A stretch of DNA of 64,000 nt, from the UHGV virus genome UHGV-1375844; one strand, given 5' to 3'. This DNA comes from a virus. The notes below the pieces were generated by a model that was not told where the DNA came from, searched no databases, and worked only from the letters and a program-made list of their open reading frames with translations. Position numbers and translations under genes: made by a program. Of the stretch, positions 53,347-56,221 are shown in pieces (the stretch's first letter is position 1; the number at the start of each line of letters is the position of its first letter).

Positions 53347-53574
53347 TCAGCTCCGGTGCTCCCACTTACACAACCTTTCACCTATCGTATTGTGGATAAG
53401 CAGCTGTCGCTCTGTTTCCTCGGTCATAAAATCCTCTCTACTCACATAGATAGGATTTGCGGCATCGCAGAATTGTACGCCCAAGGTCTGGGGTTTAATC
53501 ACGCATCCACTTATCGCGAAGCTCGCGATGAATGGCAGAAGCATCCTTAGCCCTGACTTCATTAATCGTTTCAT
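53347..53574 (-). CDS. o-spanin-like outer-membrane lipoprotein (Rz1-like)
   Basis: Signal peptide with lipobox (FAISGC); overlaps the 3' end of the i-spanin-like gene in another frame. Confidence 0.55.
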   Translation of the reverse strand: MKRLMKSGLRMLLPFIASFAISGCVIKPQTLGVQFCDAANPIYVSREDFMTEETERQLLIHNTIGERLCKWEHRS

Positions 53575-53746
53575 TTTTCACATCCACTGTGTTCTGAAGC
53601 CGTTTCCTGTCGTCTTGCCGCGCCTTTTCTTCCATTGCTTGCCGCGCCGCACGACCACCCATCGTATAGGCGCCTGCAAGCACTAAAAGAACGGCAGCCG
53701 CGGTAATCAGAGCAATCTTTAGCTTCGAAAATAGGCTGCCGAACAT
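53495..53746 (-). CDS. i-spanin-like protein (Rz-like; N-terminal TM plus charged helix)
   Basis: Internal start MFGSLFSKLKIALITAAAVLLVLAG with AAAGGAA RBS; embedded o-spanin-like ORF. Confidence 0.55.
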   Translation of the reverse strand: MFGSLFSKLKIALITAAAVLLVLAGAYTMGGRAARQAMEEKARQDDRKRLQNTVDVKNETINEVRAKDASAIHRELRDKWMRD

Positions 53747-53747
53747 A

Positions 53748-54440
53748 TCAGACGATTCCTTTCTGATGCTTTCTGACCTGCGACCAGGCAATGAAGCCGG
53801 CCACGACGATAGTTGCGATCCCGAAGACGATGCGGATCGTGTCACCGCTGGTAATGTGGCCCTGTGCCTTGTCCATTGCCACCGATACCTGTGGCATGAC
53901 ATCGGCCAGCTGCGCCAGGCCAATACCTGCCGTAACGGTCGCACCGGCAGTCTCTTTGGTAACGGGAACAGCTTTTACAGTCTTTACCGGTTTGACAATG
54001 CCGGCACGTCGCAGACCTTCTTCGATAAGCTCGGATGCATACCAGGTATTTGGTGTTTTCAGCGGACCTCGACCATTTTCGTGTCTGATGATCGCCTCTA
54101 CCAGCGGTCTTAGGGTCTCGTAGTCATGTAAATCGATCACCATGTCCGGCGTGACACCAACAGCTTTGGCCACCTCATTCACGTAAGCCACAGTGTTGTT
54201 CTCATGTGGAGGCGCCCAGCGCTCAATAACTTCGCGGATCGTGTCGATGCTTGAGCCGTCTTTGGCTCGACGTTTGTCATGGTAGGTGATGAGCGTAACT
54301 GCCAATGCGCGAATCCCCCATACGGGATCTTTGAAAGTGCAGAAGCGCGGTTCTGAAGGGTTGTCGACTAAGCCCTGCCACGGCGAACCTTTATCAAGAT
54401 TGCCAGGGTTGTTGTTGCGAATACCTCTTGGAGTTTTCAT
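53748..54440 (-). CDS. putative peptidoglycan hydrolase (endolysin candidate) with C-terminal hydrophobic segment
   Basis: N-terminal RNNNPGNL motif and position within the lysis cassette; family not confirmed. Confidence 0.4.
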   Translation of the reverse strand: MKTPRGIRNNNPGNLDKGSPWQGLVDNPSEPRFCTFKDPVWGIRALAVTLITYHDKRRAKDGSSIDTIREVIERWAPPHENNTVAYVNEVAKAVGVTPDMVIDLHDYETLRPLVEAIIRHENGRGPLKTPNTWYASELIEEGLRRAGIVKPVKTVKAVPVTKETAGATVTAGIGLAQLADVMPQVSVAMDKAQGHITSGDTIRIVFGIATIVVAGFIAWSQVRKHQKGIV

Positions 54441-54451
54441 CCTTGATCTCC

Positions 54452-54775
54452 TTATTGCAGTCCATTTTTAACGCCGTAAGCGGCCAGCCCCAACAGCAGT
54501 ACGGTAATCAGGAACGACGTAATCTTTGAGACAATGCCGCCAAAAAACCCGCTGGAGATGGAGTCGAGCCGATTAAGAAGTTTGTCCAGATTTGAATGCT
54601 GGATGCTGTGTTGTGCCGGGGTCATATCGCCAAAGTAGGTCTTGAGCTGATCGTTAACTTCCTGACCAATCTCCTCGCGCAGTTCTTTGCCCAATTTGCC
54701 GACTACCTCGCGGGCAACAATCGCGGCAATGCGCTCTACCTGCTCTGGCGTTACGCCTGCCATCTCGTTCGACAT
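54452..54775 (-). CDS. holin-like small membrane protein
   Basis: C-terminal TM ITSFLITVLLLGLAAYGV; start at M5 with GGAGG RBS; first gene of the lysis cassette. Confidence 0.4.
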   Translation of the reverse strand: MSNEMAGVTPEQVERIAAIVAREVVGKLGKELREEIGQEVNDQLKTYFGDMTPAQHSIQHSNLDKLLNRLDSISSGFFGGIVSKITSFLITVLLLGLAAYGVKNGLQ

Positions 54776-54837
54776 TATTTCCTCCATGAAAAGTCAAATC
54801 GGGATGGCAGGGTTATAACACATTAGCAAACAATTTT

Positions 54838-54865: not shown

Positions 54866-55690
54866 TTAAACACGGGTGCCATGAATTGTGCCAACCGTCA
54901 CCCACGTTGGGGCATTACCATTAACAGCAGCGCCACCAGCCCCACCTGCATACGGGGTGATATTCTTCCCCCCTCCAGACTGCGAAGCAGCTGCACCAGC
55001 GGAACCCAAGTCACCACCTTTCCCGCCAACAGATGTTCCAAGGCTTGTGGAGGTATTCCCTGCACCTGGAGCCGTAAGCGAAGCATTGCTGCCGTTGCCA
55101 CCGCCGCCGCTGGGGTAGGTTTTTGTACCACCGACGCCAAATGGTCGCCCGCCGCCGCCGCCTGAATAAGTTGGTTTATTATTACCAGCCCCAACAGCGC
55201 CGCCGCCTCCACCACCGCCTCCAATAATGCCGTTATTTTGGATGCGCAGTTTGCTTCCGATGGCATTGGTGATCGCAGGACCGCCCGGCTTACCTTTGTT
55301 GGCATCGCCGTTTCCTCCACCGCCGCCATTTCCCCCACGGCCAAGCACCATTTGTCCCGAGTTAATCACAAGCAAGATATAAGCGCAGCTGGCAAGCTCG
55401 CTTGTAAAATTGAGACAGGGCGCACTGGCAGAACTCGACACAATGGTACCGGTGATGTTGACTCTGATGGCGTTGTCCTTCACGCCTAAAGACTTAATCT
55501 GATTGACTAGAGTAGACCAGGAATAGTTGTTGTTCGCTGAAACATTGATGACCTGCTCTCTGGACTTGCCTACCAGGGTTTTCATCCAGAAAGGGGCGCC
55601 AACCCGTACAGATCTGCCGGCAGCTGACATCCATCGTTGCCCAGTCTCACTTACTGCGGAGGAGCCAACCCATCCGGAGTTGATGGTCAT
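54866..55690 (-). CDS. tail fibre tip protein, glycine-rich (alternate tip 2)
   Basis: N-terminal ~25 aa (SGWVGSSAVS.TGQRWMSAAG) shared with the 57124-57681 protein; poly-Gly tracts; start at internal ATG with AAGGAG RBS. Confidence 0.55.
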   Translation of the reverse strand: MTINSGWVGSSAVSETGQRWMSAAGRSVRVGAPFWMKTLVGKSREQVINVSANNNYSWSTLVNQIKSLGVKDNAIRVNITGTIVSSSASAPCLNFTSELASCAYILLVINSGQMVLGRGGNGGGGGNGDANKGKPGGPAITNAIGSKLRIQNNGIIGGGGGGGGAVGAGNNKPTYSGGGGGRPFGVGGTKTYPSGGGGNGSNASLTAPGAGNTSTSLGTSVGGKGGDLGSAGAAASQSGGGKNITPYAGGAGGAAVNGNAPTWVTVGTIHGTRV

Positions 55691-55755
55691 TTTCTCATCT
55701 CCTTGAGTTCCATAACCTCTTTTTCGACGCTTTAACAGCTTCGACCATAATCCCA

Positions 55756-55890
55756 ATGATACCGTTACATTTCAGACGAAGGCGTTCTTCTCCTGAATGG
55801 TCGTTTTTATCGGCTGTAACCAGCTCTGGTTGCAACTTTTACATCTCGGGCGGTCAAGCTACCCGCCATCTTGCCCGACATCATTTCCTT
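55756..55890 (-). pseudogene. remnant 3' end of a tail-fibre gene (intramolecular chaperone C-terminus)
   Basis: ~80% nucleotide identity by eye to the last ~130 nt of the 57681-61880 gene; in-frame stop upstream leaves ~45 codons. Confidence 0.5.
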
Positions 55891-55975: not shown

Positions 55976-56221
55976 TTAGGATTTTGGGCAGTTGATGGAG
56001 GTGAACGCCCCTTGCCCCACCCAACGCCAGTTAAAAATACTCCCGGCCCGATAAAGCGTATACTTACCTTCTTTCTTGATCGCATAAATTGGCACACTCG
56101 TTGACGAACCGCCAACCATTGCCTTCCCATAGCAAACAGGCTCTGGTAATTTTTGACAGGCGCTCAATGTAAGTGTTACGCCTAGTAATAAAACTAATTT
56201 CTTCATTTTATATTCCATCAT
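55976..56221 (-). CDS. lipoprotein (signal peptide plus lipobox), superinfection-exclusion candidate
   Basis: MKKLVLLLGVTLTLSAC lipobox; 81 aa; sits beside tail-fibre tip genes. Confidence 0.55.
   Translation of the reverse strand: MMEYKMKKLVLLLGVTLTLSACQKLPEPVCYGKAMVGGSSTSVPIYAIKKEGKYTLYRAGSIFNWRWVGQGAFTSINCPKS

Follow-up and report, generated by a model that had tools for sequence, protein, structure and literature searches.

The minus strand of a 64,000-nucleotide stretch of the virus genome UHGV-1375844 (the window) carries an ATG-initiated open reading frame (ORF) that spans exactly 55976–56221 and encodes an 81-residue lipoprotein (MMEYKMKKLVLLLGVTLTLSACQKLPEPVCYGKAMVGGSSTSVPIYAIKKEGKYTLYRAGSIFNWRWVGQGAFTSINCPKS), which we assign with high confidence to the Cor family of phage exclusion lipoproteins. 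The initial annotation had described an 81-residue lipobox protein at this position; the ORF and the lipobox stand, while the likely product is somewhat shorter. The conceptual translation can be divided into MMEYKMKKLVLLLGVTLTLSAC and the following stretch QKLPEPVC...INCPKS, with the region MKKLVLLLGVTLTLSA preceding the lipobox cysteine, and shows a basic n-region, a hydrophobic core and a canonical L-S-A-C lipobox in succession. The Pfam lipid attachment site model LPAM_1 matched residues 6–23 of the 81-residue ORF with 19.7 bits, slightly below its 20-bit cut-off. Because both family profiles (PHROG 1119 and NF047972) and all aligned relatives begin at Met6, the third ATG (MKKLV...), a product of 76 residues is the more likely one; the RefSeq start on the near-identical plasmid pSA20094620.2 corresponds to Met6 as well (231 nt). 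Judged from the sequence, the product of cor (55976–56206, minus strand, 76 codons plus stop, within the maximal ORF reaching 56221) is thus most likely a 76-residue superinfection-exclusion lipoprotein precursor that would mature to 60 residues by cleavage before Cys17. Its signal peptide (residues 1–16; 56159–56206, minus strand) consists of an MKK n-region and the hydrophobic segment LVLLLGVTLTL, the lipobox L14-S15-A16-C17 (56156–56167, minus strand) places Cys17 as the predicted acylated N-terminus, and the mature lipoprotein (55979–56158, minus strand) is predicted to form a small β-rich domain.

The family assignment is carried by profile matches, by pairwise identities and by conserved residues. 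The NCBIfam equivalog model NF047972, “phage exclusion lipoprotein Cor”, scored 83.6 bits against a cut-off of 31 (E = 7e-24; profile positions 1–77 of 78), and PHROG 1119, “Cor superinfection exclusion protein”, matched with E = 6.8e-30. The tblastn identity to gp25 of Salmonella phage SSU5 is 75%, and the alignment gives 79%; this orthologue has been annotated as Cor-like ever since the SSU5 genome was deposited, and on pSA20094620.2 the gene is called only “lipoprotein”. The closest phage Cor relatives after SSU5 are Cor-like proteins of some Shiga toxin (Stx) phages, which are podophages (59%), and the identity to Cor of N15 (gp24), HK022, phi80 and T1 is 47%, 46%, 43% (full length; 52% locally) and 32%, respectively. 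The 47% shared with N15 Cor exceeds the 36% between the Cor proteins of T1 and N15, both of which come from FhuA-dependent phages. With Cor as the query, tblastn against 50,697 phage records matched 153 of them; a single-sequence search of a large protein database returned three proteins, the query being short, and a profile built from 11 Cor sequences returned 363.

Across 96 aligned homologues, the lipobox cysteine, Cys25 and Cys73 are invariant, and the motif YRAG..F.W.WV is nearly so, with A54, G55, P57, F58, W60, W62 and V63 invariant or almost invariant. The protein shares its length, the lipobox, the two conserved cysteines and this motif with Cor of N15, HK022, phi80, mEp167 and T1, so that profile score, lipobox cysteine, the two further cysteines with the aromatic motif, and locus all agree with membership of the Cor family. 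Comparison of cor with its SSU5 orthologue gave proportions of synonymous (pS) and nonsynonymous (pN) differences of 0.72 (synonymous sites being near saturation) and 0.155, respectively, and a ratio of nonsynonymous to synonymous substitution rates (dN/dS) of about 0.07; given this ratio and the strong profile matches, cor is a selected coding gene and no chance ORF. A protein of Enterobacter roggenkampii that is named “phage exclusion lipoprotein Cor” has a swapped N-terminus (MFAGKKSAQIREILISESAWEEM...) with neither signal peptide nor lipobox and an intact mature part; either the gene is disrupted or its start was miscalled. Cor of HK022, N15 and phi80 protects lysogens through inactivation of FhuA and lowers ferrichrome uptake (PMC3594210). 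Together, membership of this family (NF047972, PHROG 1119) and the inactivation of FhuA by Cor relatives support the receptor-blocking role in superinfection exclusion that had first been suggested for the gene.

As in N15 and phi80, cor is the last gene of a cassette of three. The first gene (56826–57080, minus strand) encodes an 84-residue homologue of N15 gp22 (PHROG 557, “outer membrane protein”, E = 4.4e-23), with a weak pairwise match (E = 0.005). The second (56218–56826, minus strand), whose stop lies 12 nt upstream of the cor start, encodes a 202-residue homologue of N15 gp23 (PHROG 425, “membrane associated protein”, E = 2.1e-48 over the full length), which is 91% identical to SSU5_024 and shares 24% identity with gp23 over the N-terminal 114 residues of the latter (E = 3e-6). 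All three genes are under purifying selection (dN/dS 0.03–0.10, with about 0.03 for the 202-residue and about 0.10 for the 84-residue gene), and no paralogue of any of them was found elsewhere in the 64-kb window. The order gp22-like, gp23-like, cor is the same in N15, phi80, SSU5 and the window. T1, ES18 and a Dhillonvirus possess the trio as well. In these, cor converges on the gp22-like and gp23-like genes and is transcribed against the structural genes, whereas it is co-directional in N15, phi80 and the SSU5-like elements; this suggests that cor forms its own transcription unit in some lineages and belongs to the tail operon in others. A conserved “cor cassette” has been described in T1, HK022, N15, ES18, phi80 and the FhuA-using Drexlerviridae and Dhillonvirus phages of the BASEL collection, where it tracks FhuA use (PMC13164509), and receptor-binding proteins (RBPs) of small siphophages are encoded downstream of the J-like gene along with their cognate exclusion lipoproteins (PMC8594841; bioRxiv 10.64898/2026.04.02.716166). 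From the latter reports we infer that the 202-residue protein is the candidate terminal RBP of the cassette.

The locus departs from its N15-type counterparts in several respects. Its carrier is an SSU5-like phage-plasmid; the cassette lies some 4.9 kb past the J-like gene, behind a side tail fibre and an adhesin, whereas N15-type cassettes come directly after J; the 12 nt between the upstream stop and the cor start contrast with a gap of about 110 nt in N15 and phi80; and the 202-residue protein is a distant relative of N15 gp23. With SSU5 (SSU5_025, “Cor superinfection exclusion protein”) the window shares both the three-gene cassette and the intergenic sequence downstream of it, but in SSU5 the holin gene comes directly after cor, while here a fibre remnant and a T2-type gp38 adhesin gene lie in between.

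In the plasmid database PLSDB, any match to the 5-kb region was seen in 642 plasmids. Homologues of cor, the 202-residue gene and the 84-residue gene that reach at least 60% identity are each present in 126 plasmids, with equal host-genus counts except for Enterobacter; co-occurrence of the cassette genes is read from these equal counts and from inspected loci. A further 128 PLSDB plasmids carry only a distant relative of the 202-residue protein, with less than 60% identity; the listed ones share about 27% across 72% of the query. On one plasmid with adhesin B and without the cor cassette (NZ_CP058356.1), such a relative is located at 83535–83966, some 50 kb from the tail-fibre locus.

Beyond SSU5, the closest full-length relatives of the 202-residue protein (25–27% identity) are homologues in Stx podophages of the 933W/Sakai type and in Warwickvirus-type phages. 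Neither group is known to use FhuA, and the Warwickvirus-type phages, which are T1-like, are reported not to depend on FhuA alone (PMC10373560). As PHROG 425 also occurs in these two groups, the family as a whole is not FhuA-specific; its conserved part is the N-terminal half. The product of orf22 of Stx phage 86, which lies upstream of cor in that phage, was considered and rejected as a homologue of the 202-residue protein. RefSeq places the start of the 202-residue gene on the near-identical plasmid at the equivalent of 56784, giving 188 residues, which looks too short from sequence comparison: SSU5 DNA retains the 14 additional N-terminal residues (56784–56826), and these can be aligned to the gp23 N-terminus of N15. 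With the longer start, the gene overlaps the stop codon of its 84-residue neighbour.

The surrounding region is 99.4% identical to the Salmonella enterica plasmid pSA20094620.2 (NZ_CP030187.1; 106.6 kb, IncFIB, non-mobilizable), and its genes follow the SSU5 order, with ParA, spanins, endolysin and holin ahead of the tail genes, which identifies the element as an SSU5-like phage-plasmid. In agreement with the initial annotation, which had placed the lipoprotein gene between tail-fibre tip modules, genes for gp38-type adhesins recognized by Pfam flank cor on both sides. Adhesin A (57124–57681, minus strand; 185 residues) consists of a Gp38_N domain (Pfam E = 1.4e-20; PHROG 1121) and an SSU5 gp22-like C-terminal part, and is 50% identical to SSU5_022. 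Adhesin B (54866–55690, minus strand; 274 residues) is a T2-type gp38 “receptor-recognizing protein” (Pfam GP38, E = 1.5e-49, plus Gp38_N). Upstream of adhesin A lies a long side tail fibre gene (57681–61880, minus strand; 1399 residues; Pfam PF21446 and PF13884; PHROG 22609), whose product ends in a C-terminal Peptidase_S74 intramolecular chaperone. Residues ~150–450 of this fibre (60300–61400, minus strand) are of low complexity, rich in Ala, Ser and Glu with recurring SETNAA and AAAS, and this segment contains many spurious overlapping ORFs on both strands. The side tail fibre is preceded by the C-terminal part of a J-like central tail fibre, annotated as “phage tail protein” and cut by the end of the window (61968–64000, minus strand), which aligns with N15 gp21 (BLASTP E = 2e-18, 31% identity over 263 columns) up to the last residues of both proteins; its last ~80 residues match the gp21 end. 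By analogy with N15, this C-terminus fits a location of the cassette proteins at the central tip.

Between cor and adhesin B we identified a remnant of a second tail-fibre 3′ end that is decayed and frameshifted (55688–55875, minus strand) and whose two-frame translation matches the fibre C-terminus (QPELVTADKNDHSGEERLRLKCNGIIGIMVEAVK, compared with QPELVTVDKNDQSGEERLRLNYNGVIGLLVEAVK at the intact fibre end); at the DNA level, 57857–57557 and 55863–55566 are 68.5% identical. The segment 55862–57080 is SSU5-like (78% DNA identity) and the segment 53362–55856, a stretch of 2.5 kb that opens with this remnant and contains adhesin B, resembles an Enterobacter ludwigii plasmid (91%), in which the adhesin B gene directly follows the fibre gene. 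The fibre remnant and the resulting junction at about 55856–55862 indicate that adhesin B was acquired by a separate recombination. Among the 642 matching PLSDB plasmids, this layout of tandem gp38-type adhesin genes after one fibre gene, with the remnant ahead of the second, was seen only in pSA20094620.2 (two records). As both adhesins possess the Gp38_N attachment domain, one fibre might carry either tip. Further along lies the lysis cassette, comprising holin (54452–54787), endolysin (53748–54440) and i-spanin (within 53495–53944) genes; a second lipobox protein encoded there (53347–53574, minus strand; MKRLMKSGLRMLLPFIASFAISGC...) is an Rz1-type o-spanin and distinct from Cor.

The initial annotation had likened the lipoprotein to Llp of phage T5. 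This likeness holds for architecture, predicted fold and function class, but not for the sequence family, which is Cor. BLASTP gave no alignment of Cor with T5 Llp at E ≤ 100, hhalign of the 96-sequence Cor profile with Llp aligned only 38 columns comprising the signal peptide and the first cysteine, and Llp was not retrieved at E ≤ 10 when the PDB sequences were searched with the Cor profile. Direct homology to Llp at the sequence level was rejected on these grounds, all three comparisons being blank beyond the signal peptide. Nevertheless, the two proteins (Llp: PDB 8A60 chain B and 7QJF) have an identical LSAC lipobox, a mature size of about 60 residues, one cysteine 8–10 residues past the lipidated one and another 4–5 residues from the C-terminus, and both genes adjoin receptor-recognition genes. 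They differ in that their sequence similarity is confined to the signal peptide and that T5 llp is divergent from the pb5 gene with its own mapped promoter, whereas cor is co-directional with its upstream gene and abuts it. Among the five neighbouring proteins scanned with Pfam and PHROG, none matched a pb5-type RBP.

Fold comparison is accordingly the sole link between the Cor protein of this window and Llp. An AlphaFold2 model computed on the 96-sequence alignment reached a mean predicted local distance difference test (pLDDT) score of 84.7, with block means of 92–93 over residues 21–70. The predicted fold is a small β-rich domain with a presumed N-to-C disulfide staple, as in Llp. A Foldseek search of the model against the PDB did not place Llp within the top 50; in BFVD the best matches were to a T1-like phage's exclusion protein and to lipoproteins from T5-like phages. 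Cor and Llp have been grouped by fold in published work (PMC13164509; bioRxiv 10.64898/2026.03.26.714494), in which Cor of phage KanT1 compares to Llp with a template modelling (TM) score of 0.69 and an AlphaFold3 model docks KanT1 Cor to FhuA from the periplasmic side (PMC13164509). Cor and Llp are related in structure and function, but not in sequence. Another functional parallel is Rtp45 of phage Rtp (PDB 9RPS), likewise a small lipoprotein of the periplasm whose gene sits at the RBP locus and which inactivates the outer-membrane receptor of its own phage (PMC12685063); its target, unlike that proposed here, is LptDE, and it is not among the best structural matches listed for Cor.

We propose the following mechanism. 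The 76-residue precursor would be exported, acquire its lipid at Cys17 and be processed by signal peptidase II. In the Lol pathway the residue that follows the lipidated cysteine (+2) governs sorting, and Gln rather than Asp at this position leads to the outer membrane. Mature Cor, with Gln at +2, would be expected to be sorted to the periplasmic (inner) leaflet of that membrane. Cys25 and Cys73 presumably form an N-to-C disulfide, like C11 and C58 of Llp. The stapled 60-residue β domain would then bind the periplasmic face of the protein receptor of the phage, most probably the TonB-dependent ferrichrome transporter FhuA, and lock it in a state that its extracellular binding partner cannot use. 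Such a lock would exclude the phage itself and others that rely on the same receptor, and progeny would not be lost on cell debris. There are precedents for inactivation from the periplasmic side: T5 Llp folds loops 7 and 8 of FhuA inward (PMC9586334), and the unrelated Rtp45 acts likewise on LptD (PMC12685063). Taken as a whole, we regard it as probable that the gene encodes a Cor-family exclusion lipoprotein of an SSU5-like phage-plasmid that inactivates FhuA from the periplasmic side; on the identity of the target taken by itself our confidence in FhuA is moderate.

Several observations weigh against this interpretation. SSU5 is reported to adsorb to the lipopolysaccharide (LPS) core via its fibre adhesin gp22 (cited in PMC12312913), and the literature reports no protein receptor for the SSU5 phage group. 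The 202-residue protein matches its FhuA-associated homologues weakly (24% to the N-terminal part of N15 gp23; E = 0.003 to the T1 homologue), its full-length matches belonging to the Stx podophages and Warwickvirus-type phages mentioned above. Phages that depend on BtuB have Cor-like proteins as well (PMC13164509). Signals for separate expression of cor are likewise wanting: five promoter-like matches were found where shuffled controls predicted 4.8, and the five terminator-like matches (2.7 expected) all lie on the opposite strand. A promoter and terminator of its own were therefore rejected for cor. The hairpin right after its stop is unremarkable (z = -0.72) and lacks a U-tract. The gene may be read along with the late tail operon.

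An unlikely alternative keeps the family and the periplasmic-side mechanism and replaces FhuA with BtuB, another TonB-dependent transporter or some other outer-membrane protein. The Cor-like proteins known from BtuB-dependent Markadamsvirinae and from a Tempevirinae phage (PMC13164509) favour it, and LptD is disabled in the same manner by the unrelated lipoprotein Rtp45 (PMC12685063). The C-terminal half of the 202-residue protein does not align with its N15 or T1 homologues, a difference that makes a receptor other than FhuA conceivable, and its closest full-length relatives beyond SSU5 are in Stx and Warwickvirus-type phages; the nearest Cor after SSU5, at 59%, is likewise from Stx podophages, whose receptor use differs. 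These points must be set against the match to an equivalog-level Cor model (NF047972), the 46–47% identity to the FhuA-validated Cor proteins of HK022 and N15, which is above that between the T1 and N15 proteins, both of these acting on FhuA, and the presence of the full three-gene cassette, which in the BASEL set is found only in FhuA users (PMC13164509). It is conceivable, if rather doubtful, that SSU5-like phage-plasmids, currently taken to bind the LPS core by way of their fibre adhesin, finish adsorption on a protein receptor, possibly other than FhuA, through the 84- and 202-residue proteins at the central tip, with Cor as the lock on that receptor.

The wording of the initial annotation implied the flanking tail-fibre tips as partners of Cor. 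Cor would then mask the receptors of the gp38-type side-fibre adhesins, LPS core or a porin, and cor does lie physically between the two adhesin genes. We consider this very improbable. The cassette occurs with adhesin A in SSU5, with no separate adhesin in E. coli pAVS0968-B and with both adhesins in this window, but is absent from the E. ludwigii plasmid, which has adhesin B only; cor was found in as many plasmids (126) as the 84- and 202-residue genes and does not go with an adhesin type; and adhesin B arrived separately, as recorded by the remnant and the junction at ~55860. LPS core, which the SSU5 homologue of adhesin A binds, would moreover be out of reach for a lipoprotein of the periplasmic leaflet. 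Co-occurrence and mosaic structure together thus show that cor travels with the 84- and 202-residue genes and with no adhesin type, and a partnership of Cor with gp38-type adhesins was rejected on the co-occurrence counts and the mosaic junction. The receptor-binding partner of Cor is probably the pair of 84- and 202-residue proteins rather than the flanking adhesins. On the side of such masking, a 2018 report by Arguijo-Hernandez and co-workers has, by its title, Cor interacting with outer-membrane proteins other than FhuA. A role outside exclusion altogether, as an o-spanin in lysis or as an accessory to tail-tip structure or assembly, has next to no probability, and neither has a non-functional ORF. 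The holin gene is only ~1.2 kb away (~90 nt in SSU5), o-spanins are likewise small outer-membrane lipoproteins, and the authors of the KanT1 study assigned no function to the two upstream cassette proteins (PMC13164509). However, the profile matches are specific to Cor, a spanin pair, with the lipobox protein at 53347–53574, is already present in the lysis cassette, on which ground the o-spanin reading was rejected, and strong purifying selection rules out a dead ORF. A virion part is also disfavoured by the orientation of cor in T1, ES18 and the Dhillonvirus, where it points against the structural genes, as would suit an accessory gene with expression of its own.

Earlier work has already described the Cor family, the cassette and the relationship of Cor to Llp, and the locus adds nothing conceptually new to them. 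Cor probably provides a lysogenic- or lytic-conversion function on widespread enterobacterial phage-plasmids, close homologues of each cassette gene being present in at least 126 PLSDB plasmids. If active, it would render carriers resistant to FhuA-dependent phages of the T1, T5 and phi80 types, to colicin M and to albomycin, at the cost of ferrichrome uptake, which would be of relevance to phage-therapy cocktails against Salmonella, E. coli and Enterobacter. It further predicts that SSU5-like phage-plasmids use a protein as terminal receptor. Should this receptor be other than FhuA, the locus would represent a new specificity of RBP and exclusion lipoprotein inside the Cor family.
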